From Deltaproteobacteria bacterium (GTDB taxonomy: Bacteria > Desulfobacterota > BSN033 > UBA1163), in NCBI GenBank assembly GCA_020059605.1, contig JAGVBT010000044.1, forward strand, positions 42,554-106,553: a stretch of 64,000 bases of DNA, in the 5' to 3' direction. Both the position numbers and the translations under genes were made by a program. Positions 4,828 through 63,949 of the stretch are shown piece by piece; within the stretch, counting starts at the first letter, position 1, and each line of letters opens with the position of its first letter. The notes below the pieces were generated by a model that was given only the letters and a program-made list of their open reading frames with translations, made no database searches and was not told the origin of the DNA.

Positions 4828-4879
4828 GCCCCCTCACCCCCTCCCTCTCCCCGTTGGGGAGAGGGGAAGGGTGAGGGGT
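4828..4879. repeat. Dispersed repeat family 1: GC-rich hairpin CCCTCTCCCC-N3-GGGGAGAGGG flanked by GGGTGAGGGG (full copy)
   Basis: CCCCTCACCCCCTCCCTCTCCCCGTTGGGGAGAGGGGAAGGGTGAGGGG is a near-perfect 23-bp-arm palindrome between btuC and btuF. Related copies are at 36961-36992, 37119-37150 and 63607-63646. Confidence 0.8.
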
Positions 4880-6790: not shown

Positions 6791-6834
6791 CAACATCACC
6801 CTTCACAGCCTTCCACCGAAGACCTGTTGTGAAG

Positions 6835-7020
6835 TGCGTTCAGGCAGGTTTTCTGGCTTACGGATCATCCTAATCCCTGCCCCTTCCCATCCTTCGACCC
6901 TTCGATAAACTCAGGGCTCAGGACAGTGGTTGCCGGCAGGTTTCGTCCCCGATTACAGCGGCGTGGCCGTCCCCGATTTCCACGGGGTTCCCTTATTCTG
7001 GCTTGGCGCCACCTGAACGC
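6835..7020 (-). promoter_or_regulatory. Cobalamin (B12) riboswitch aptamer
   Basis: The minus-strand RNA reads GCGUUCAGGUGGCGCCAAGCCAGAAUAAGGGAACCCCGUGGAAAUCGGGGACGGCCACGCCGCUGUAAUCGGGG...CCACUGUCCUG...GGGAAGGGGCAGGG...AGCCAGAAAACCUGCCUGAACGC. This carries the conserved GGUG, AAGGGAA, GUGGAAAUC, CCGCUGUAA, CCACUG, GGGAAGG and B12-box GCCAGnnnACCUGCC elements. A 9-bp P1 stem (GCGUUCAGG/CCUGAACGC) closes the aptamer. Confidence 0.9.
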
Positions 7021-7155
7021 AGATCAATTGTTTATAAATTACCATAATATTCGGCTTAATGTCAAATTTATTGAGTTTACATTTAGCCTAAAATATTGTA
7101 GAAGGAAGATAATTGCAGGTTTTTTAGGGATGGCTTCACGGGAGAAGGAGGGCAT

Positions 7156-8124: not shown

Positions 8125-8175
8125 GTGAAAACCGATGAGTTCTAAATTAAAAGGAAATAATCAAAAATTAAAAAC

Positions 8176-8204
8176 TCCGAACTCCGAACTCCGAACTCCG
8201 AACT
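8176..8204. repeat. Tandem heptamer (CCGAACT) x4
   Basis: CTCCGAACTCCGAACTCCGAACTCCGAACTT lies between hemB and the radical SAM gene. In the track ORF it translates as PNSELRTPNSELRTPNF. Confidence 0.9.
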
Positions 8205-8215
8205 TTCAACTGCGG

Positions 8216-9238
8216 ATGGTCGCCTGGGAGTTGATCCGGAGCTGTAATCTGGCTTGCGTCCACTGCCGCGCCTCTTCGGAAAGGGGACCCTACCCGGGCG
8301 AGCTAACCACGGAGGAATGCTTCAGGGTGATGGATGAGATGGCCACCATCGGCAAACCCGTCATCATCCTCACCGGTGGAGAACCCCTTCTTCGGGCTGA
8401 CATCTTTGATCTGGCCGGTTATGGAACGAGGAAAGGGTTCCGGATGGTGATGGCCACCAACGGCACCCTGATCACCCAAGAGAACGTAAAAGCGATGAAG
8501 GGCTCGGGGATCCAGAGGATCAGCATCAGCCTGGACGGCCCTGATGCAGAGACCCATGACGCCTTCCGCAAGGTGAAAGGCTCTTTTGAGGGATCGCTCA
8601 GGGGTATCGAGGTCGCCAGGAAAGAGGAACTTCCCTTTCAAATCAATACCACGATCACAAAGACCAACCTCCATCTGATCGAAAAGATCCTTGGCCTTGC
8701 CGTTGACCTCGGCGCCGTCGCCCATCACATCTTTTTGCTGGTCCCAACGGGGAGAGGAAAGGAACTTCAGGATCAGGAGATATCGGCCCTCGATTATGAA
8801 AAGACCCTCCACTGGTTTTACGAACAGAACGATCGGGTGACCCTCCAGCTCAAGGCTACCTGTGCTCCCCATTACTACCGCATCCTCCGGCAGAGGGCGA
8901 AAAAAGAGGGGAAAAAAATCACCCCTCAAACCCATGGCCTGGATGCCGTGACTCGGGGATGTCTTGGCGGCATCTCTTTCTGCTTTATTTCCCATGTAGG
9001 ACAGGTTCAACCCTGCGGTTATCTGGACCTGGACGGCGGAAACGTGAGGGAGAAACCCTTTCAGGAAATCTGGGCAAAATCCTCCATTTTCCAGGATCTT
9101 CGGAATTTCGATGGTTACCATGGGAAATGCGGACCATGTGAGTTCAGAAAGGTCTGCGGAGGCTGCCGGGCGCGGGCTTACGAAATCTCGGGAGACTATA
9201 TGGGGGAGGAACCCTATTGCGTCTATGAGCCGTCTTAA
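8216..9238 (+). CDS. Radical SAM/SPASM-domain protein, AhbD/NirJ/AhbC-like (alternative heme biosynthesis)
   Basis: CNLACVHC is a CxxxCxxC cluster motif, and the C-terminal CGPCEFRKVCGGCRARAY is a SPASM auxiliary cluster. It sits next to hemB. The preferred start is M28 (8216), because the 27 N-terminal codons of the track ORF are the tandem repeat. Confidence 0.65.
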   Translation: MVAWELIRSCNLACVHCRASSERGPYPGELTTEECFRVMDEMATIGKPVIILTGGEPLLRADIFDLAGYGTRKGFRMVMATNGTLITQENVKAMKGSGIQRISISLDGPDAETHDAFRKVKGSFEGSLRGIEVARKEELPFQINTTITKTNLHLIEKILGLAVDLGAVAHHIFLLVPTGRGKELQDQEISALDYEKTLHWFYEQNDRVTLQLKATCAPHYYRILRQRAKKEGKKITPQTHGLDAVTRGCLGGISFCFISHVGQVQPCGYLDLDGGNVREKPFQEIWAKSSIFQDLRNFDGYHGKCGPCEFRKVCGGCRARAYEISGDYMGEEPYCVYEPS

Positions 9239-15507: not shown

Positions 15508-15857
15508 AAGTCCCTCCGGTCTGCATTCAAATGCTTCTCAATCTGTTACATGTGAGGGGACGTTGGTTCAAATACAACTTATCAATTTTTAAAGGCCATG
15601 GGATCAATCAATCCTAATAGAGTGCTTTCCGGGGGAGTTAGTTTTTCACTCAATCTTGAATTCTTTTGCTTCTGTTCCAATTACCCCCCGGAAGTTGACC
15701 TCTTTATACCAAAAATTTAATTTTATGGCAATTTTTGATGCGGGAAGACAAAGAAAAGATCAGCATCATGGGGAGGTGGGAAGAGAGGCAGATCTCAACC
15801 GGTAACGTCTGGCTCAAACCGAAGGAATGGTTCGGAGTGAACAATGAAAAATCAAAT

Positions 15858-15890
15858 CTCCGAACTCCGGACTAATTACTCCGAACTTTT
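15858..15890. repeat. CTCCGAACT-word repeat cluster
   Basis: CTCCGAACTCCGGACTAATTACTCCGAACTTTT overlaps the stop codon of the GHL-domain gene. It shares its word with the 8176 tandem repeat and with an inverted copy at 14137-14160. Confidence 0.6.
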
Positions 15891-34312: not shown

Positions 34313-34411
34313 GCTATCACAATAGCTTGTGAAAGAATTTGATTGTTCGACTTGACAAAGGGGGGTTTTTCATGTTAACCTTGTGAAAACTTGTTACAAG
34401 GAGGTCGCAAC

Positions 34412-35047
34412 ATGGAATTAAAGGAGCCGCTGATACGGACGGGGCATCCTCCCCATTCCTTAAAACTAAAAAGAAGTGGATTTGGCTTCCGCAGTCTTCT
34501 CCCGAAAATCATCCTGGTCATCCTCATCTCCTCTCTCACCATACACCTCCCCAACTTCACAATCCAGACCACGAAAGGGGAGCTGGCTATCCGGGAGATT
34601 ACGGGGATACTGGAGAGATACTCGATCGATATCGACCATGTGACCAGAATCGAGCTGGCAGAAGCGATCTACGAGGAGTCGGTCCGGTATAACCATGATC
34701 CCAAGTTTATTCTGGCGCTCATTGCCATTGAGAGTTCCTTTCGAAACGGATCTGTCTCCGAAAAGGGCGCTAAGGGGCTGATGCAACTTATGCCCTACGT
34801 AGCGGAGTCGCTTGCCCAGGAACTGGGCATTGAGTGGAACGGAGATCCCACTCTTTTCAACCCCTTACTGAACATAAAGATGGGAATTCATTACCTTTCC
34901 CGGCTCATCCTTGACTTTAATGATGTCAGGGTTGCCCTGGTAGCATACAATTATGGACCCACCTATGTCAGAAGCCTTATCGACAGGAAGCAGAGAATTC
35001 CCTCCAACTACTATCATAAGGTCATCAACGCCTACCAGACCCTTTGA
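34412..35047 (+). CDS. Lytic transglycosylase (SLT domain) protein
   Basis: The SLT motifs ALIAIESSF and GAKGLMQLMP are present, with an N-terminal membrane anchor. Confidence 0.75.
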   Translation: MELKEPLIRTGHPPHSLKLKRSGFGFRSLLPKIILVILISSLTIHLPNFTIQTTKGELAIREITGILERYSIDIDHVTRIELAEAIYEESVRYNHDPKFILALIAIESSFRNGSVSEKGAKGLMQLMPYVAESLAQELGIEWNGDPTLFNPLLNIKMGIHYLSRLILDFNDVRVALVAYNYGPTYVRSLIDRKQRIPSNYYHKVINAYQTL

Positions 35048-35177: not shown

Positions 35178-36083
35178 ATGGCTTTTGTCCCTTCTTATAT
35201 CGGCTTTTACCAAAAAGGGGAGCTCGGTAAGAGAATCGGACTCCTCATGGATATTCTCAAGGAGTGCCGGCTCTGCCCGAGGGAGTGCCGGATCAACCGG
35301 TTGAGCGGGGAGGTTGGCTATTGCAAGGCGCCCAAGGAGCTGATGATCTCAAGCGCATTTCCCCATTTTGGCGAAGAACCCCCCCTGGTCGGATACCACG
35401 GGTCAGGGACGATCTTTCTCACCCACTGCAGCCTCCGATGCCTCTTCTGCCAGAATTATGATATCAGCCACGAGGGAAGTGGCGAGCGTGTCACCCCCTC
35501 TGATATGGCCCGGGCCATGAAGAGGCTTCAGGAGATGGGCTGCCATAACATCAACTTCGTCACTCCCACCCATTATACCCCTCAGATCATAGCCTCTCTT
35601 CCCGAGGCGATTGAGATGGGACTTCATCTCCCCATTGTCTACAATTGCTCCGGTTATGAATCGATGGAGGTGATTCAGCTCCTTGACGGGATTGTGGACA
35701 TCTATATGCCTGATGCGAAGTATATGGATGAGAAGCATGCCCGGAGGTATTCCAATGCTCCGGACTACCCGGAGGTCCTTAAAAAGATTCTCAAGGAAAT
35801 GCACCGCCAGGTAGGAGACCTGAGAATGAATTCCGCAGGAATTGCTGAAAGGGGACTTCTCATCCGGCACCTGGTGATGCCAAATGGGGTCGCTTCCTCT
35901 GAAGCGCTCCTGAAGTTCATCGCCGAGGAGGTCTCCGCTGACTCCTATGTTAACATCATGGCTCAGTACCGGCCTGAATACCGGGCTTTCGATCATCCAG
36001 AGATCAGTCGGAGAATTGCCCAGAAGGAGTATGCGGAGGCGATCCAGATTGCAAAACGCTTCCATCTCTATCGGGGTTTTTAG
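35178..36083 (+). CDS. Radical SAM protein of the PflX family (PFL-activase-like)
   Basis: The C-x3-C-x2-C motif is in THCSLRCLFCQNYD. The rest matches the COG1313-like pattern. Confidence 0.7.
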   Translation: MAFVPSYIGFYQKGELGKRIGLLMDILKECRLCPRECRINRLSGEVGYCKAPKELMISSAFPHFGEEPPLVGYHGSGTIFLTHCSLRCLFCQNYDISHEGSGERVTPSDMARAMKRLQEMGCHNINFVTPTHYTPQIIASLPEAIEMGLHLPIVYNCSGYESMEVIQLLDGIVDIYMPDAKYMDEKHARRYSNAPDYPEVLKKILKEMHRQVGDLRMNSAGIAERGLLIRHLVMPNGVASSEALLKFIAEEVSADSYVNIMAQYRPEYRAFDHPEISRRIAQKEYAEAIQIAKRFHLYRGF

Positions 36084-37034
36084 GTGAAATTGCAGGAAGC
36101 CTTTCGAGAGATTCAATGCCTTAAAAAGAGAGTCCGATCCCTTACCAAAGAGATTGAATCCATCAGGGGGATCTCGATAGAAGGGCCGTCTCCCGTGGAG
36201 GGGTTGCTTAGGATGAGAGGGATTCGGGTCTTCAGAAAAAATCCCGGCGATCGGCTCTTCTTCCCTTCCGACCTATCCGGATCCTGTCAAACCCGATTCT
36301 ATGAGATGATGAAGAGGTACTCCTTCCGGCTCGTGCTCCGGGATATGATCAAGAACCAGGATGGGTTTCGCATCCGGGATTTGACCCACTACTGCTCTTC
36401 AGAAGTCGTCCGGCGGTATTGTCAGATTCTCTGTGATATGGGAGTGATCATAAAGAGCGGAAGGGCGAGTTACCGGACCGGCGTCAGGCCCCTTTACAGT
36501 TTCGGGCCGACCTTAGAGTGGTTCATTGCCGAGATGTTTAAAAGGGAGTTCGCTTCCCCTGCCCTTTATGGAGTGAGCGTGAAGAAGACCCGCTCCGGCG
36601 GAGATTACGATGTAATGGGCTCCTGGAATCAGAGACTGGTCTATGCGGAGGTGAAGTCCTCCCCTCCCAAAGGGGTTGAACAGGCTGAGATCTCCACCTT
36701 CTTCTCAAGGCTGGAAGACCTCTTGCCCGATGTGGCCATCCTCTTCAATGATACTCAATTGAGGATGAAGGATAAACTGGTGGTGATGTTTGAGGAGGCA
36801 CTGAGCCGAAGATATGGAGAGGAGTCGAAAAAGCTTTATGCTGTGGAGAGGCTGATCGGAGAACTCTTCCATATCCAGCACCGTATCTTCATCGTCAACA
36901 GCAAAAAAGATGTGGCGGAAAATTTTGGGATCTGCCTCAGGGATTATCTGAGACACGGAACCCCTTCTCCCTCTTCTCGCCCCGTTGGGGTGGTGTCACA
37001 ATTAACCGTTCGCCCTGAGGTTCTCGAAGGGTGA
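36084..37034 (+). CDS. Hypothetical protein, with a predicted winged-helix domain followed by a PD-(D/E)xK-like motif
   Basis: GTG start overlapping the PflX stop. A coiled-coil N-terminus and a wHTH-like segment (RFYEMMKRYSFRLVLRDMIKNQDGFRIRDL) are present. GGDYDVMGSWNQRLVYAEVKS fits a D...E-x-K nuclease core. The last roughly 25 codons are encoded by dispersed repeats. Confidence 0.4.
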   Translation: MKLQEAFREIQCLKKRVRSLTKEIESIRGISIEGPSPVEGLLRMRGIRVFRKNPGDRLFFPSDLSGSCQTRFYEMMKRYSFRLVLRDMIKNQDGFRIRDLTHYCSSEVVRRYCQILCDMGVIIKSGRASYRTGVRPLYSFGPTLEWFIAEMFKREFASPALYGVSVKKTRSGGDYDVMGSWNQRLVYAEVKSSPPKGVEQAEISTFFSRLEDLLPDVAILFNDTQLRMKDKLVVMFEEALSRRYGEESKKLYAVERLIGELFHIQHRIFIVNSKKDVAENFGICLRDYLRHGTPSPSSRPVGVVSQLTVRPEVLEG

Positions 37035-37153
37035 ACGGTTTGCTCAGCCTCCGGCTCAGAGAGCCTCTGGCTCGGAGAGGAGAGGCTCTGTCGAACCGAG
37101 AGGGACTTGCGACACAACCTCCCCTGCGGGGAGAGGGTCGGGGTGAGGGGCGA
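36961..37153. repeat. Composite cluster of dispersed palindromic repeats (family 1 half-copies plus a family 2 hairpin plus an extra hairpin)
   Basis: 36961-36992 CCCCTTCTCCCTCTTCTCGCCCCGTTGGGGTGG is a family-1 left arm. 37005-37038 AACCGTTCGCCCTGAGGTTCTCGAAGGGTGAACGGTT is a family-2 hairpin. 37046-37082 CAGAGAGCCTCTGGCTCGGAGAGGAGAGGCTCTG is a hairpin. 37119-37150 CCCCTGCGGGGAGAGGGTCGGGGTGAGGGG is a family-1 right arm. Confidence 0.7.
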
Positions 37154-38955: not shown

Positions 38956-39234
38956 CTAAAGCCTCTTTATATATCGATCTGCCTCTTTTTTGCTGATAAC
39001 CCTGAGGATGACGATTTTCATAGACTGAATTTCGAAGAAGGCCCGAAACTTATCAATTCTCAGTCTGTAAAAAGTAGTCTTTTTACCTTTAATCTTCTTG
39101 ATCAATTTTCCCCTTGGGAAAGGGTTTTCTTTAAGGATCTTTAAATCCGAAACTACTTTTGTAACGATCCCCATTCCCAAATCATCCAGGTCCCTTGAGG
39201 CTGCCGGTGAGAGTTCGATCTTGAACCTATCCAT
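38956..39234 (-). CDS. RelE/ParE-family type II toxin
   Basis: 92 aa with the ...FYRLRIDKFRAFFEIQSMKIVILRV... RelE-like C-terminal pattern. It overlaps the upstream antitoxin. Confidence 0.65.
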   Translation of the reverse strand: MDRFKIELSPAASRDLDDLGMGIVTKVVSDLKILKENPFPRGKLIKKIKGKKTTFYRLRIDKFRAFFEIQSMKIVILRVISKKEADRYIKRL

Positions 39235-39490
39235 GCTTTGACTTTCTCTTTTTCAGATATTCATCGATTTCTATACCGCCAAGCTCCAGATATTCCTCTC
39301 TCGCTTTCTCCAGGGCGGCCTGAAACCTGGGATTGTTTTCAAGTAAGTAGTCTTCAAAATCGTCCTCTGAAATGCCTTTGATAATAGCCGTCGGTTTTCC
39401 CCTGGAGGTTACAACGACCTCCTCCTTTTCAGCCACTTTCAAAATTTCCGAAGTTTTGTTCTTAAGTTCCCTGACATTTGCAAATCTCAT
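39227..39490 (-). CDS. Phd/YefM-family antitoxin
   Basis: 87 aa with the Phd-like N-terminus MRFANVRELKNKTSEILKVAEKEEVVVTSRGKPTAII. There is an 8-nt overlap with the toxin gene. Confidence 0.7.
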   Translation of the reverse strand: MRFANVRELKNKTSEILKVAEKEEVVVTSRGKPTAIIKGISEDDFEDYLLENNPRFQAALEKAREEYLELGGIEIDEYLKKRKSKHG

Positions 39491-40916: not shown

Positions 40917-40955
40917 TTACTATGGCTTTGCCGAGATTCTCATGTTAATTGGCAC
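40917..40955 (-). pseudogene. Degraded duplicate of the 3' end of the cyclase-STAND gene (fragment 1)
   Basis: The reverse complement encodes HENLGKAI..., matching the C-terminus of the 42476..45844 product ([14 protein letters not shown]...). Confidence 0.6.
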
Positions 40956-41031
40956 CTGTCTTTAATCCCATATTTGACAATTGTTACAAATGGGATTATC
41001 ATTGTAAACAAAACAAATTGGAGAAATCGAC

Positions 41032-41307
41032 ATGGCTGAAACTAAAATCTTGAAAACAGATTCGAGGGGACGAGTCGTTCTCCCTCCTCCTTTTCGAAGG
41101 GAATCTTTGTTCGAATATGCCGTTAAGGGTGATCAGATCATCCTCTATCCAGTCCGGACAGTCCGAAGATACCCCGATATGTCAGACCTGCCTGAAGAGG
41201 TTCTCTCCCCGGATTGGGTTGAAAGAGAGAAGAAAATTAATGCAGATACGCGACCCGGAATCGTTGCTCCAACCCCTTCAAAGGCGCTCAGAAAAAAGAA
41301 GAAATGA
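41032..41307 (+). CDS. AbrB/MazE/SpoVT-family antitoxin
   Basis: KILKTDSRGRVVLPPPFRRE is a swapped-hairpin motif. It is followed 6 nt later by the toxin gene. Confidence 0.6.
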   Translation: MAETKILKTDSRGRVVLPPPFRRESLFEYAVKGDQIILYPVRTVRRYPDMSDLPEEVLSPDWVEREKKINADTRPGIVAPTPSKALRKKKK

Positions 41308-41313
41308 CTTTCT

Positions 41314-41625
41314 ATGCCAGCGAAACCATTTCTCTTTGAACTCCACTTCGAAATCATCTTCTTGGAAAGCTATTCCCATTTGAAACCGGGTGAACAAAAA
41401 GCGATTGATAAAGCGGTCAGGTTTCTCAGTGCAAATCCTCGACATCCATCCCTCAATGTTCATAAGGGGAAAAACGTCAAAGGAAAGTATGCCGAGGGAG
41501 GAAATGATGTCTTCATCGCATATGCTTCGAAAAGTTTAAGACTCACCTTTGAATACGGTCCTCAACCGGGCATGATCGCCCTACGCAATTGTGGGCATCA
41601 TGAATCATGCGAAAGAAAAATGTGA
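41314..41625 (+). CDS. RelE/ParE-superfamily toxin (probable)
   Basis: 103 aa. The pattern ...KGKNVKGKY...DVFIAY..SLRLTFEY is RelE-like. It pairs with the AbrB-like gene. Confidence 0.45.
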   Translation: MPAKPFLFELHFEIIFLESYSHLKPGEQKAIDKAVRFLSANPRHPSLNVHKGKNVKGKYAEGGNDVFIAYASKSLRLTFEYGPQPGMIALRNCGHHESCERKM

Positions 41626-41649
41626 ACCCTCCCTAATTTCTTACAAAAG

Positions 41650-41760
41650 GGCTAACATTTCTTTTTCATATTTTTCGACCCAGCCGTCGGCGCCGCATTC
41701 TTTCAAGATTTCTATGGCTTTGCCGAGATTCTCATGTAGATTGGAACCCTTCTTTAATTT
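41650..41760 (-). pseudogene. Degraded duplicate of the 3' end of the cyclase-STAND gene (fragment 2, with its own stop)
   Basis: The reverse complement encodes ...[38 protein letters not shown]. The authentic end is ...[32 protein letters not shown]. The identical run TCGACCCAGCCGTCGGCGCCGCATTCTTT starts the copy here (41673-41701) and at 42510-42538. Confidence 0.75.
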
Positions 41761-41801
41761 CTACTCTTGACGTAATCAAAAAATTACGCTATTTTGATAG
41801 G

Positions 41802-42122
41802 GTGATTAAGCCAGACCCCTCTCTTGAGCCCGATTGGGATGAGGACAATATTGACCATATTGCCGAACATGGTCTTCGGCCGGAACAGGTTGAAGAAGTC
41901 TATTATGGTGAAGGGCCATTTCCTACTCTCGCTCTTAAAACTAAAAAACAAAAGGGTCGAGTTGCCGAGTATCGTTATCGGTTATGGGGGACTGATGCAT
42001 CGGGAATGTATATCGAAGCCATTATTGCCCCATACCCTGAATTTAGGCTTTGGAGGTGTGTTACCGCATTCCCCATGTCACCCTCCACACAGAAAGCCTA
42101 TTTAAGGAGAATCAAAAAATGA
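41802..42122 (+). CDS. BrnT-family (DUF497) ribonuclease toxin
   Basis: 106 aa. ...WDEDNIDHIAEHGLRPEQVEEV... is the BrnT pattern. Confidence 0.6.
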   Translation: MIKPDPSLEPDWDEDNIDHIAEHGLRPEQVEEVYYGEGPFPTLALKTKKQKGRVAEYRYRLWGTDASGMYIEAIIAPYPEFRLWRCVTAFPMSPSTQKAYLRRIKK

Positions 42123-42406
42123 AGAAAATTCCTCTCAAAATCAAAAAGAAGCTAAAAAGCGAGGCTAAAACATGGGATTCTTCTATTTCTCAAGAGAAGC
42201 CCAAAGAGGTATCCAGGCTGATCGAAAAAGCAGATTTATTTGTCGCCTACCGGCCTCCTCGGCAACCCGTTTCAGTGCGCTTAGATCCCTTCGACCTTGC
42301 ATTATTAAAGCGGATTGCCCGTAATAAAGGACTCCCTTTCACCCAGCTTATGTCCATGTGGCTGCACGAAAAAGTTGAGCAGGAGAAAACCAGAGTCGGA
42401 GCTTAA
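42119..42406 (+). CDS. BrnA-family antitoxin
   Basis: The start is at ATG 42119, with an ATGA overlap on the BrnT stop. The C-terminal RHH-like ...VSVRLDPFDLALLKRIARNKGLPFTQLMSMWL is present. Confidence 0.55.
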   Translation: MKKIPLKIKKKLKSEAKTWDSSISQEKPKEVSRLIEKADLFVAYRPPRQPVSVRLDPFDLALLKRIARNKGLPFTQLMSMWLHEKVEQEKTRVGA

Positions 42407-42475
42407 GTATATGCTCCTGAATCCCATTAATCCTCTAATGTAAACCCATCCCCAATTTCTACTATTCCGCTAATT

Positions 42476-45400
42476 TCACAAAGGCTGAGCCAATACTTTC
42501 TCGTACTTCTCGACCCAGCCGTCGGCGCCGCATTCTTTGAGAATCTCTATGGCCTTGCCGAGATTCTCCTGGGCTTTTAATCTATCCCCTTTTCGTTTAA
42601 ACAACTCTGCATAAAGAGCATAATCATTTCCCAGGTGGAACATCGTTCGATTTCTCTGATCGGCTTCAATGGCCTTCTGAATCCAATACTCTGCTTCAGA
42701 TAAGTGCTGGTCATCAATGTTAAGCAGAATCTCTCCGATAAGTCTTTGCATCCCACCTTCGGCTGCCTTTACTTTATTGTTTCGTGAATGCACATACAAA
42801 GATTCCAAATCCACACCCTTTTCTTTATTCATCACTTTCGATCTTGCTATAGCAACTCTTCCCCACCCCACCCAGGAAGGCCATAAACGATTGCGCTCGA
42901 AAGCCGAAATCCCTTTTTCGAAACGTTCTTTAGAGCCCTGGAAATTTCCCATTTCAAAATAGGTATCTCCCAGGTGATATTGGTTTCCCGCATCCCAGCC
43001 AGAAATATTAATCTTTTCACAAAATTCGAACCCCTTCAGCAGGTATTTTTCAGCTTCTTCAAGCAATCCTTTCCCATAGCAGGAAGTTCCGTGACTTGAA
43101 TATGCTATTGCCTTTGAATAAATATCACCGCTCTCTTCAGCAATCTGGAGGCCTTCATTCGAAGTCTTGAATTGCAGATCTATTCTCCCATGGTACCAAT
43201 GAGAAAAATAGGCCAAATTACTCATCGTTACCGCAATGCCCCAAAAATTTTTTGCTGCCACATTAATATCAATAGCTCTTTGTGAAAATTTAATTGCTCT
43301 TTCAAATTCGCAGTTCGCCCCTAAAGCATATCCAAACCAGCTACTTGCTAAAACTAAACTAACAATATCTTTTATCTCTTCCGATATTTTTAGGGCTTCC
43401 TCAAATGCTTTAAATGCCTCTGGATAATTTTCTTCTCCAGACCAATAGTATGTTCCGAGAATCATGTATATGTGAGAAAGTCTCCTTTTATAATCACGTT
43501 TGATGGCCAAATCAATAATTGGATCTATGGCTTCTTTGGCCTCAACAAAATGGTTCATTTGAGCGATATAAAGTCCAAGAACCGTCCTGGCATCGACAAT
43601 CTGTTTTTCAATATTCGCTGCCTGGGTTAATCGCTCAAGAGATGCTATTCTCGTCTTTGCATAAGCAATCGCATCATTAAACGAAGCTGTCTTCTCGGCC
43701 CTCCTGCTTGCCAACCTCGAATACTCAGCGCATTTTGAATAATTCTCACTCAAGAGGTAGTGTCCGGATAATACTTCATAACATTCACTTAAATTATCCT
43801 TGTAAAGTTCCTCGATATTGTTCCCAATCTCCTCATGAAGTTTCTTCTTCCTTTTGGCCAAGATGGAATTATAAACCACCTCACGAGTTAAAGCGTGTTT
43901 GAAGACATAATTCGATTGAGGGTATATGCCTCTTTCATAAAGAAGTTCTGAGTCTTTAAGGATAGAAAGGTAAGAGAGCAGGTCTTTTTCTGGGAGGCCC
44001 ATAATGCGGTTTATCAATGGATAACTAAACTCTCTCTCAATGACAGACCCGCTTTGGAGCACCTCTTTTGCCCTCTCAGGTAAGGAATCTACTCTTGCCA
44101 TAATCACATCCTGGAGTGTTAAAGGAATGGTCAGCTCATGGATATCTTTTGATAAACGAAATTTGTTATCTTCTCTCTCTATGATTCTTAATTCTCTCAG
44201 GGACTGTATAAACTCTTCAATGAAAAAAGGGACTCCTTCTGTCTTCTCCAGGATCAATTCCTCAAGTGATTTTTCAATCTCTTTTGTCCCTAAAATATGG
44301 GTTGCCATCTCAAGGCTCTCCCTATTCGAGAGCCGATGCAACGTTAATTGATTGTGATAAGACTTTGCGCCCCAGGTGTGTAAAAACTCAGGCCGGTAGG
44401 TAAATATTAATAACACCCTTGCTCCCGGGATGCTCTCCAAATTGTTTCTTAATACGTCCTCTGAACTCTTATCCAGCCAGTGCAGGTCTTCAAATGCCAT
44501 CACCAGAGGCCGTATCTCAGACCCTCTAAGAATGATCCGTTTTATTGATTCAATAATCCTATCTTTCTTTGATTCAGGGCTCATGGAAATCTGTTCGATC
44601 CCACTATCCTTGACTGAGAGAAGCTCAAGGAGATATGGGAGAGTCGAGGCTTCATCGACTCCTATTAATCTCAACCCTCTTGTGACTTTTTCTTTGATTT
44701 CCTGGTCCCCTTCTCCTTCATGAATATCGAAGTTTGACTTCAGGATGTCTATCACCGGGTGATAAGCTACCCCCCTGCTGTAGGAGAGGCATTTCCCTTC
44801 CAAAAAGGTTACATTTTCGTTGACTATTGCCTTCCTGAATTCATACAAAAGCCTCGATTTACCACAACCGGCCTCAGATACAATAGAAAACGCCTGGCCC
44901 TTTCCTGATTTGGCTCTCGTAAATCCATCGAGCAGAAGCTCAAGCTCACGTTCCCTTCCAACAAAGGGAGTCAGCCCGCGCTCAGCACTGACATCAAATC
45001 TTGTCCTTCTCGTGCTGGGAGCGATCACCTGAAAAACCTTTATGGGTTCTTCCTTGCCCTTAACATTTTTTTTCCCCAAAGCCTCAAACCTAAAAAACCC
45101 CTCCGTGAGTTTGAAGGTATCTTCGGTCACATAGGTTGTTCCTGGTTCTGCCAAGCCTTCCATTCGGGATGATAGATTCACCGTATCTCCAACCGCCTTG
45201 AACTCAACCCGAAGATCATTACCCAAGCTACCCACCACCACAGGACCTGTGTGAATACCAATACGCATCTTAATTGGCGTTATTCTGCTTTCGATTTTGA
45301 GCTGATCGCTGAACTTGCTCATCTCCCGATGGATGGTTAATGCAGATCGAATTGCACGCTGTGGAGCGTCCTCCAGAGCAATCGGCGCCCCAAAAAGAGC

Positions 45401-61401: not shown

Positions 61402-62082
61402 TTATACCATCTCTTGGACGGTCTTTTCCATCTCCTTCAGGACTTTCGGGTCGTAAGGGAGGGCTTTTTTAAGCGCGGGGTCCAGCGGATCCTCCGGGTT
61501 GAAATTCTGGAGGATCAACCTTGGCCCCGCTCTCAACTGCTTGCCCAGGATTCGGACCTCTTCCTCGCTATGGAGTGTAGGGACAACGGTCATTCGAAAT
61601 TGATACCCCACCTTCTCCCCCTTGAGGATCTCAATCGACCTGGAGATGAGGGAAAGGTCAACGGGAAGCCCGGCTGCTCTCCGGTAACTGAAGGAATCCA
61701 GGGGACCCTTCACATCCATGGAGACGAAATCGACCCTTCCTTCTTCAATCAGTTTTCCCAACATCTCTGGCCGGGAGCCATTTGTGTCGAGCTTGACTGA
61801 AAATCCGCCTTCTTTTATCTTCTGAATCAGAAGAGGAAGATCCTCGTGCAGGGTCGGCTCGCCGCCCGTGATGCAAACCCCGTCAATCCAACCCCTGAAG
61901 GCGTAAAGCCGCGAAAGGACTTCTTCCAGGGGAATGGAGGTCAACCGCGCGGGGGAAAAGACCAGGGGATGGTTATGGCAGTAAGGACAACGGAAGTTGC
62001 AGCCGGGGAGGAAAAGGACGGAGCAGATCTTCCCGGGCCAGTCCAAAAAGGAAGTCTCTAAAAATCCCTTGATCTCGATCAT
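61402..62082 (-). CDS. Radical SAM activating enzyme of the NrdG-like (anaerobic RNR activase-like) family
   Basis: IKGFLETSFLDWPGKICSVLFLPGCNFRCPYCHN is the characteristic N-terminus with CxxxCxxC. The start is taken at M18. Confidence 0.65.
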   Translation of the reverse strand: MIEIKGFLETSFLDWPGKICSVLFLPGCNFRCPYCHNHPLVFSPARLTSIPLEEVLSRLYAFRGWIDGVCITGGEPTLHEDLPLLIQKIKEGGFSVKLDTNGSRPEMLGKLIEEGRVDFVSMDVKGPLDSFSYRRAAGLPVDLSLISRSIEILKGEKVGYQFRMTVVPTLHSEEEVRILGKQLRAGPRLILQNFNPEDPLDPALKKALPYDPKVLKEMEKTVQEMV

Positions 62083-62250
62083 GGTTCTTCTTAAAGGCGC
62101 GGATGCTGTTTTCGGACACTCGTTCAGGCCCATTCATCCGTTGGTTATTAATTTTCCGGGTATATGTTGTTTATATATAAGTCCCATCCAATAATCAAGT
62201 AAAAAGAACGGCTTGAATGTATATCCATACCAAATTAGAATGAAGGGGAG

Positions 62251-63572: not shown

Positions 63573-63949
63573 AATTGAAAATCGATTGGATAAACATTCA
63601 AAAGGGCCTCCCTCTCCCCTGGTGGGAGAGGGCTGGGGTGAGGGGGAAATGGAAATATTCACCCCCACCTTCACCCATCAATGTTTTTTCCATCATCCTG
63701 TTTCTCATGTTCCCTCTATCAGCATCCCCTCAACCCCAGACCATCATCGAAGTGGGGAAATTCTCAGGTGAAAAAATAGAAAACAAAACTCCTTCGGATT
63801 GGAAACCTCTGACCTTTAAAAAGATCGAACGCCAGACAGCTTATTCCCTTGTAAAAGAGGGAGGGACAGTGGTAGTGAAAGCCGTTTCCGAATCTTCAGC
63901 CTCGGGACTGGTCCGGGAGATCAAAATCGATCCGGATTTGATGTATTGA
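63569..63949 (+). CDS. Hypothetical exported protein
   Basis: ATGA coupling to the upstream gene and the RBS AAGAGAAGG. A hydrophobic segment (FSIILFLMFPLSA) is present. Codons 13-27 (LPLPWWERAGVRGKW) are encoded by a family-1 dispersed repeat. Confidence 0.4.
   Translation: MKLKIDWINIQKGLPLPWWERAGVRGKWKYSPPPSPINVFSIILFLMFPLSASPQPQTIIEVGKFSGEKIENKTPSDWKPLTFKKIERQTAYSLVKEGGTVVVKAVSESSASGLVREIKIDPDLMY
63607..63646. repeat. Dispersed repeat family 1 copy inside coding sequence
   Basis: CCTCCCTCTCCCCTGGTGGGAGAGGGCTGGGGTGAGGGGG. Confidence 0.7.

Follow-up and report, generated by a model that had tools for sequence, protein, structure and literature searches.

Within a 64,000-nt stretch of DNA from a Deltaproteobacteria bacterium (GenBank assembly GCA_020059605.1, contig JAGVBT010000044.1, positions 42,554 to 106,553 of the forward strand; hereafter the window), a gene for a PflX-type radical S-adenosylmethionine (SAM) enzyme, here rSAM, is followed directly by a gene for a protein of a new family, here the partner, and then by a gene for a PolX-family DNA polymerase. 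We tentatively read rSAM, the partner with its winged helix and PD-(D/E)xK domain, and PolX as a chromosomal operon for DNA processing or repair that is vertically inherited in anaerobic Thermodesulfobacteriota, and we hold this reading at somewhat less than an even chance. What we count as established is narrower: the gene order is conserved, the junction between rSAM and partner is tight with a non-ATG start, the partner is modeled with a nuclease fold carrying an invariant signature, genes of rSAM systems recur beside it, and so do two genes of DNA metabolism, PolX and RarA, whereas signals of mobile elements or defense are absent.

Conservation of the rSAM-partner pair

We gathered 174 loci from look-ups and from genome and metagenome scans. 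Genes were called in 169 of these and in the window segment, the partner was found in 162, and its neighbors were clustered. The genome scan used a narrower partner alignment, as the diverse one was too variable, and its 80 loci are therefore biased toward close relatives. Where the partner was ≥55% identical to the window protein, rSAM lay immediately upstream on the same strand in 81 of 84 loci and PolX immediately downstream in 60 of 68. At 45–55% identity, rSAM still held this place and strand in 19 of 30 loci and PolX in 2 of 26, and at 35–45% identity neither did (0 of 14 and 0 of 11). In the 45–55% group, the pair and its tight junction were kept although the flanking genes, PolX downstream and a lytic transglycosylase gene with an SLT domain upstream, were gone. 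A neighbor-joining tree of partners placed the rSAM-linked ones in one contiguous block and the PolX-linked ones in a sub-block. Because of these identity-binned counts, the survival of the pair without its flanks, and the single block in the tree, we conclude that the pairing is old, has been maintained stably within a single Thermodesulfobacteriota clade, and is not universal in either family. All genomes with the pair were from uncultured organisms.

An earlier note on this DNA, made from the sequence alone, had supposed a fixed pairing of the two genes and held that the idea would fall if the pair did not recur in other genomes. It does recur, and within the one clade it is near-universal; the word "fixed" fails for other partner clades, in which the partner stands alone or has other neighbors. 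The note had also described the partner as starting at a GTG that overlaps the rSAM stop codon. Instead, the stop codon (TAG, 36081–36083) and the start codon (GTG, 36084–36086) share no bases: the one directly abuts the other with a 0-nt spacer, and both open reading frames (ORFs) lie in the same frame.

This junction is itself conserved. The spacer was between −4 and +1 nt in ~94 of the 125 loci that had both genes (about 75%). In 67 of these ~94 loci the stop directly abutted the start, which was always GTG or TTG and never ATG, while the stop codon itself varied (TAG 26, TAA 24, TGA 17). By contrast, where an insert of 35–290 nt separated the genes, the partner started with ATG. We infer from this pattern that the partner is translated by termination-reinitiation, so that production of the two proteins would be coupled, and the restriction of non-ATG starts to abutting junctions points to selection for the coupling. 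If so, these junctions would be a clear natural example of such coupling, with a non-ATG start where the genes abut and ATG where they are apart. Programmed read-through across the single in-frame stop was considered and rejected because the stop codon varies, because the two genes at other loci have a 4-nt overlap and so differ in frame, and because the partner matches included no fused rSAM-partner proteins. A low-level read-through fusion of the two is possible, with nothing in its support.

PolX adds a second conserved neighbor, which the earlier note had missed while recognizing the rSAM-partner pair correctly. Partner and PolX genes overlapped by 4 nt in 27 of 81 other loci and by 11 nt in 8, and in 40 of the 81 they overlapped or were ≤20 nt apart. 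In the window, the spacer is 139 nt and contains a GC-rich palindromic element resembling a repetitive extragenic palindrome (REP-like). A terminator scan found no site on the + strand between rSAM, partner, and PolX, and promoter and terminator scans gave results at chance level.

Links in distant clades

Partner relatives outside the block bear on whether the pair is more than inherited order (L-numbers denote loci). Several of them have other enzymes of the same rSAM branch as neighbors. One example is a 381-aa activase-like rSAM, which we term type-2, within 12 nt downstream of the partner in a Gemmatimonadota genome (L086); L095 also has a type-2 rSAM gene at +1 of the partner, and L088 and L096 have one at +3. 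In five loci, protein B of the AmmeMemoRadiSam system (AMMECR1, Memo, and radical SAM proteins; TIGR04336, 317–323 bits) is at +1 of the partner, with an 8-nt overlap in three, and the cluster in L094 also holds a bona fide AmmeMemoRadiSam rSAM (TIGR04337, 286 bits against a cut-off of 220). We note that in the L094 cluster, which is headed by a partner homolog, a small MntA/HalB-like nucleotidyltransferase ORF lies between protein B and rSAM (2303–2584), and that an NTP_transf_2/HepT gene occupies the corresponding position in L089.

A further clade (L075, 83–2229; L123) has no rSAM, and there the gene for the recombination factor RarA overlaps the start of the partner by 16 nt. RarA was assigned with NCBIfam AAA ATPase/RarA models (best E value 1.9e-173), and as judged from gene context this overlap is an independent link of the partner to DNA replication or repair. 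Other clades have different company. In L076, L077, L079, L080, and L081 the order is constant: a Fur-like gene, FeoB, and a DtxR/MntR-family regulator come before the partner, and a gene for a secreted PEP-CTERM-like protein comes after it. At three loci from different genomes or contigs (L085, 3718–5967; L116, 1463–4207; L087, 3079–5001), the gene directly upstream of the partner encodes acyl-CoA synthetase or CoA-transferase-like domains fused to GNAT, resembling the protein acetyltransferase Pat. Desulfacinum hydrothermale (DSM 13146) is among these genomes, and its partner stands alone, with no rSAM beside it. Overall, an rSAM or Memo neighbor was present in ~9 of 30 informative distant loci. 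The repetition of rSAM links in another gene order and with paralogous enzymes is our strongest argument for functional association over inherited synteny. The earlier note had proposed that pairing with a DNA- or RNA-directed partner would be a functional clue to PflX-type enzymes, and this idea is strengthened, as distant partner clades adjoin two other rSAM subfamilies of the same branch or AmmeMemoRadiSam protein B.

The partner is a predicted nuclease of a new family

The partner gene is genuine and highly conserved. We found 1,892 relatives at E ≤ 1e-3, the top 120 of which were 70–92% identical; an exhaustive search of 50%-identity representatives gave 424 clusters (88 at E ≤ 1e-30), and a scan of one genome per species found at least 564 carriers. 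The protein had zero significant sequence matches in Pfam (none at E ≤ 1), NCBIfam, PADLOC, or the Protein Data Bank (PDB), and its family profile gave only a marginal ArsR match against the PDB. Together with the structural model, this makes the partner a new, unnamed family that has no Pfam or NCBIfam model but can be placed with confidence among known folds. Conservation begins at residue 1, in support of the GTG start, and fails only over the last ~24 residues (293–316). The variable tails of homologs (e.g., ...SPLP.G.R...) look like read-through into REP-like inserts.

With a diverse 42-sequence alignment, AlphaFold gave a partner model with a predicted local confidence score (pLDDT) of 91.4 and a predicted template modeling score (pTM) of 0.85; 20 close relatives gave a pLDDT of only 57. 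All three parts that the earlier note had read from the sequence are present in this model: a helix over residues 2–32 where it saw a coiled coil, an ArsR-like winged helix over residues ~60–135, and the core of a restriction-endonuclease fold. The last of these follows the series H141–156, E160–167, E174–181, E184–191, H200–213, and E217–222 (H, helix; E, strand), which is the alpha-beta-beta-beta-alpha-beta topology of PD-(D/E)xK proteins. The stretch quoted in the note, GGDYDVMGSWNQRLVYAEVKS, corresponds to residues 172–192. In the model, D174 and D176 open strand 174–181, E189-V-K191 closes strand 184–191, and E145 lies in helix 1, so that an acidic start of strand 2 is combined with a (D/E)xK strand 3. 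Both elements are invariant in 42 relatives of 23–53% identity, in which G46, R82, G141, G173, D174, D176, E189, K191, R209, and D223 are all invariant and T143-L-E145-W and R45 nearly so. The best full-length structural matches of the model are nucleases of the Can2/Card1 type. The note had offered the lack of a nuclease-like fold in a predicted structure as grounds for dropping its proposal, and such a fold was found.

The hydrophobic residues L3, F7, I10, L13, V17, L20, I24, and I27 of the N-terminal helix are spaced 3–4 residues apart, making this helix a possible coiled-coil dimerization element, and the segment is missing from many distant relatives. The region around R45-G46 is modeled as a short helix and a strand. 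At a pI of 9.6 the partner is basic, and so is its winged helix taken alone (9.7).

The radical SAM enzyme

The upstream gene scored 46.7 bits against Pfam Radical_SAM (PF04055; gathering threshold 29.5), which places it in the superfamily. Its NCBIfam matches were all weak and far under the cut-offs. The best, to the AmmeMemoRadiSam rSAM model TIGR04337, reached 27.6 bits against a cut-off of 220, and the enzyme is thus not assigned to that family. Glycyl-radical activase models scored 13–26 bits overall against cut-offs of 131–496 (TIGR02493, for the pyruvate formate-lyase activating enzyme, PFL-AE, 24.4 against 231.75; TIGR02494, 19.3 against 174.35; TIGR02495, for NrdG, 25.9 against 131.15). 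Neither the operon nor the other genes scanned, which covered part of the window, included one for a glycyl-radical enzyme.

We aligned PflX-type, type-2, and bona fide AmmeMemoRadiSam rSAMs. Their mutual identity is only 19–25%, yet the N-terminal four-cysteine motif and the CxxxCxxC-QN motif of the radical SAM cluster are common to all. The N-terminal motif may be the site of an auxiliary cluster or of zinc. Relatives 78–93% identical to rSAM are annotated by the Joint Genome Institute (JGI) as "putative pyruvate formate lyase activating enzyme," which we take to be the name of K04070 in the PflX orphan group (COG1313/K04070). On account of the Pfam match, the motifs, the weak NCBIfam scores, and the names of these relatives, "PflX-type, activase-like orphan" seems a fair label, and the earlier description of the gene as a PflX-type radical SAM enzyme agrees with the ORF, its Pfam score, and the JGI names. 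Literature searches on PflX plus radical SAM, on COG1313, and on AmmeMemoRadiSam returned nothing on function. The coordinates of the three genes and their parts are collected in Table 1. We took the antisense ORF at 35403–36116 to be a shadow of rSAM, a conserved gene, and set it aside.

Table 1. Positions in the window of the genes and elements discussed in the text
Feature	Position	Strand	Remarks
SLT-domain lytic transglycosylase	34391..35047	+	Pfam SLT 2.9e-25
PflX-type, activase-like radical SAM enzyme (rSAM), 301 aa	35178..36083	+	ATG start; Pfam Radical_SAM
N-terminal four-cysteine motif C30-x2-C33-x3-C37...C49	35265..35324	+	Invariant in rSAM alignment
Radical SAM cluster motif C84-x3-C88-x2-C91, then QN	35427..35450	+	From translation; invariant in rSAM alignment
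rSAM-partner junction TAG-GTG, 0-nt spacer, same frame	36081..36086	+	Sequence TTT TAG GTG AAA
Partner protein, 316 aa: long helix, winged helix, predicted PD-(D/E)xK domain	36084..37034	+	GTG start
N-terminal long helix, residues 2–32	36087..36179	+	AlphaFold model; possible coiled-coil dimerization element
Winged helix-turn-helix region, residues ~60–135	36261..36488	+	Includes YSFRL with invariant R82
PD-(D/E)xK nuclease-fold domain (predicted), residues 141–292	36504..36959	+	
Putative catalytic motif GGD174-Y-D176-V...Y-A-E189-V-K191	36597..36656	+	Invariant residues in 42 relatives
Non-conserved C-terminal tail, residues 293–316, and stop codon	36960..37034	+	Length and sequence vary among close relatives; pLDDT <50
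REP-like GC-rich palindromic element	37112..37150	.	In partner-PolX spacer
PolX-family DNA polymerase with PHP domain, 570 aa	37174..38886	+	Pfam HHH_8, DNA_pol_B_thumb, PHP

Proposed function and alternatives

Under the operon reading, the partner, a basic and probably dimeric protein translated by reinitiation at the rSAM stop codon, would bind DNA by its winged helix and cut it as a metal-dependent endonuclease. The partner and rSAM would take part in one and the same step of DNA processing or repair and would probably form a complex, since they appear to be made in a fixed ratio. The radical chemistry of rSAM would be directed at nucleic acid, such as a lesion or a modified DNA base or possibly RNA, and PolX would trim and refill the product. 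A broader proposal is that the partner family is the nucleic-acid-facing component of the PflX/AmmeMemoRadiSam rSAM branch as a whole, in an anaerobic radical DNA/RNA pathway that joins rSAM chemistry, incision by the partner, and resynthesis by PolX; we consider this doubtful.

Several points weigh against the operon reading. Most of the evidence for the pairing comes from one monophyletic block and therefore counts as approximately one evolutionary event kept by vertical descent. PolX has been lost in most of the 45–55% clade, and ~21 of the 30 informative distant loci have no rSAM or Memo neighbor, their partners being alone or beside DtxR/FeoB, Pat-like acetyltransferases, or unrelated genes. 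With at least 8,000 matches at E ≤ 1e-10, the rSAM family far exceeds the partner family in size, and most PflX-type enzymes therefore work without the partner. To our knowledge, no radical SAM enzyme of DNA repair belongs to this rSAM branch. Finally, nuclease function, the choice of DNA over RNA as target, and complex formation by the partner are all inferences.

Some of these points lead directly to the alternative that the two genes are merely co-transcribed in one lineage and take part in unrelated processes, as a case of inherited synteny without shared function. The confinement of rSAM-linked partners to a single block of the tree, the many solitary distant partners, and the larger size of the rSAM family are all in line with it, and the wider order of PriA, PaaK-like ligase, ACT, SLT, rSAM, partner, and PolX genes is likewise syntenic among close relatives. 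Still, the pair outlives its SLT and PolX flanks with its 0-nt junction kept, and the confinement of non-ATG starts to abutting junctions points to selected coupling. Moreover, two other partner clades adjoin paralogous rSAMs or AmmeMemoRadiSam genes in another gene order, which would be rare by chance. We regard this explanation as unlikely.

The partner could also be a protein substrate of rSAM, with a radical or other modification, for example at the L-x-x-R45-G46-[FILY] turn, switching the nuclease on. The nearest rSAM families, judged by weak scores only, act on proteins (PFL-AE and NrdG), translational coupling would provide a fixed stoichiometry, and G46 is invariant and R45 nearly so in the 42 relatives. 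However, the R45-G46 motif only loosely resembles the glycyl-radical signature RVxG[FWY], and every activase model fell far under its cut-off on rSAM. In the model, G46 lies at a helix-to-strand turn, where a glycine may be kept for structural reasons, and it is equally invariant in clades without a nearby rSAM. Modification of the partner by rSAM seems rather improbable.

We find it more improbable again that the partner is mainly a winged-helix transcription regulator whose nuclease-like domain serves as a sensor or oligomerization module in control of the operon. The ArsR-like winged helix and the basic character of the protein would suit this role, as would the position of the partner after Fur, FeoB, and DtxR genes in one clade. 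Against it, invariance of D...ExK and of the helix-1 glutamate across relatives of 23–53% identity argues for retained catalysis, and the best full-length structural matches are active nucleases. Nor did any repeat resembling an operator come to notice, though no search aimed at one was made.

The earlier note had further envisaged a modification- or restriction-like role, and this found no support. In PADLOC, the partner had no match and rSAM gave only a weak one to prokaryotic viperins (15 bits, E 0.0033). The operon contains no methyltransferase, the genes that we called or scanned at these loci included no cas genes (the neighbors being SLT, rSAM, PolX, PriA, and similar), and partner relatives were absent from 72,556 plasmids, 50,697 phage records, and IMG/VR contigs. 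G+C content is flat across the region and the same as in the flanks. By the measures of defense models, methyltransferase, and mobile context, then, the genes do not look like a restriction-modification or anti-phage system. Because of these results and the core-gene surroundings, a restriction or defense role is unlikely; rather, the stable position, flank-like G+C, high sequence conservation (70–90%), and lack of mobile relatives make the partner look like a housekeeping gene. A defense or restriction-like system, or a Can2-like effector nuclease triggered by a small molecule made by rSAM, is accordingly very improbable, even though the closest solved structures are CRISPR ancillary nucleases and rSAM has its viperin match, given also that the partner has no CARF or other known sensor domain.

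Surroundings of the operon and other features of the window

The PriA gene, which we count with PolX and RarA as DNA-related context in favor of the operon reading, lies 4.3 kb upstream of rSAM, and the surrounding core genes (RsmG, PriA, PaaK-like ligase, ACT-domain protein, MFS transporter, and SLT) recur in the same order in relatives. The SLT gene occupies position −2 in 69 loci and is lost in the 45–55% clade that retains the rSAM-partner pair; it is a case of conserved synteny in closer relatives and probably not part of the module. Just past PolX, two small overlapping ORFs on the − strand (38956–39234 and 39227–39490) have the look, judged by sequence, of a RelE/ParE-type toxin and a Phd/YefM-type antitoxin. 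The REP-like element (...CCTCCCC-N-GGGGAGAGGG...GGGGTGAGGGG) has three copies in the window (4840–4878, 37112–37150, and 63607–63645), and the partner-PolX spacers of other genomes carry similar inserts.

Elsewhere in the window, a cobalamin riboswitch at 6826–7031 (−; 101.9 bits) was the sole Rfam match above the gathering threshold. A second radical SAM protein of 242 aa (61402–62133, −; Radical_SAM 76.7 bits and Fer4_12) adjoins a PAS-GGDEF gene. In the related contigs L173 and L174, a radical SAM gene of 254 aa that has both of these Pfam domains likewise adjoins a GGDEF gene and lies near an NrdD gene, and because of this last neighbor the 242-aa protein may be an activase of anaerobic ribonucleotide reductase. 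At 40917–42593 (−), repeats of ~50–80 nt with a spacing of 792–835 nt suggest that two or three small paralogous genes stand in tandem; the last repeat copies overlap the 3′ end of a same-strand gene for a 1,122-aa protein (zinc-ribbon, cyclase, AAA_16, and TPR). Short tandem runs of the 7-nt unit CTCCGAA occur at two distant sites (8150–8220 and 15833–15889).

Comparison with known systems

The three-gene arrangement of PflX-type rSAM, partner, and PolX matches no system that is known to us or that we found, and its parts have relatives in several. The best structural matches of the partner, at 10–14% identity, are the CARF nucleases of type III CRISPR (Can2, Card1, and VC1899, DUF1887). These have an N-terminal CARF sensor, whereas in the partner model residues 1–135 form a long helix followed by a short strand and a winged helix. 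They also act in a type III CRISPR context, whereas the partner is chromosomal, with housekeeping-like conservation and no CRISPR context.

On the radical SAM side, glycyl-radical activases (PFL-AE and NrdG) and the KEGG/COG "PflX" group belong to the same branch as the window enzyme, which differs from the activases in its extra N-terminal four-cysteine motif and in having no glycyl-radical enzyme in its operon. Spore photoproduct lyase is a radical SAM enzyme of DNA repair and a precedent for radical chemistry directly on a DNA lesion. It is an analogy only: it sits on another rSAM branch, works without a nuclease partner, and showed no homology, for which no search was made.

Bacterial repair centered on PolX offers a further comparison. 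The nuclease-fold partner overlaps or abuts PolX in about half of loci, an arrangement that would be expected, by analogy, for incision followed by end-cleaning and gap filling. We know of no described PolX pathway that includes a radical SAM enzyme or the nuclease family of the partner.

A last comparison is with the AmmeMemoRadiSam system (TIGR04335, TIGR04336, and TIGR04337, for AMMECR1, Memo, and the radical SAM protein). Memo was not found in the 64-kb window by tblastn with the L094 Memo as query, and AMMECR1 was not searched for. Burroughs et al. reportedly predicted in 2019 that the system has a role in nucleic-acid base modification. Its rSAM has the cysteine motif C-x2-C-x3-C...C and CxxxCxxC-QN in common with the window rSAM, and distant partner relatives lie directly upstream of its protein B. 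Earlier comparative work put forward base modification, of RNA or of nucleotides, as the role of the system formed by AMMECR1, Memo, and rSAM (PMC2034487), and this proposal fits the nucleic-acid link of the partner. Both PflX-type and AmmeMemoRadiSam rSAMs are widespread, and the latter group has human homologs (MEMO1 and AMMECR1). The partner, which lies beside enzymes of this branch in three distinct clades of its own family and is linked to PolX and RarA as well, gives a testable pointer to nucleic acids for both. If the pointer is right, a nucleic-acid pathway would be the first concrete substrate class for two widespread rSAM groups, and the combination of rSAM, partner, and PolX is, as far as gene context can tell, a solid comparative-genomics lead for these two orphan groups.

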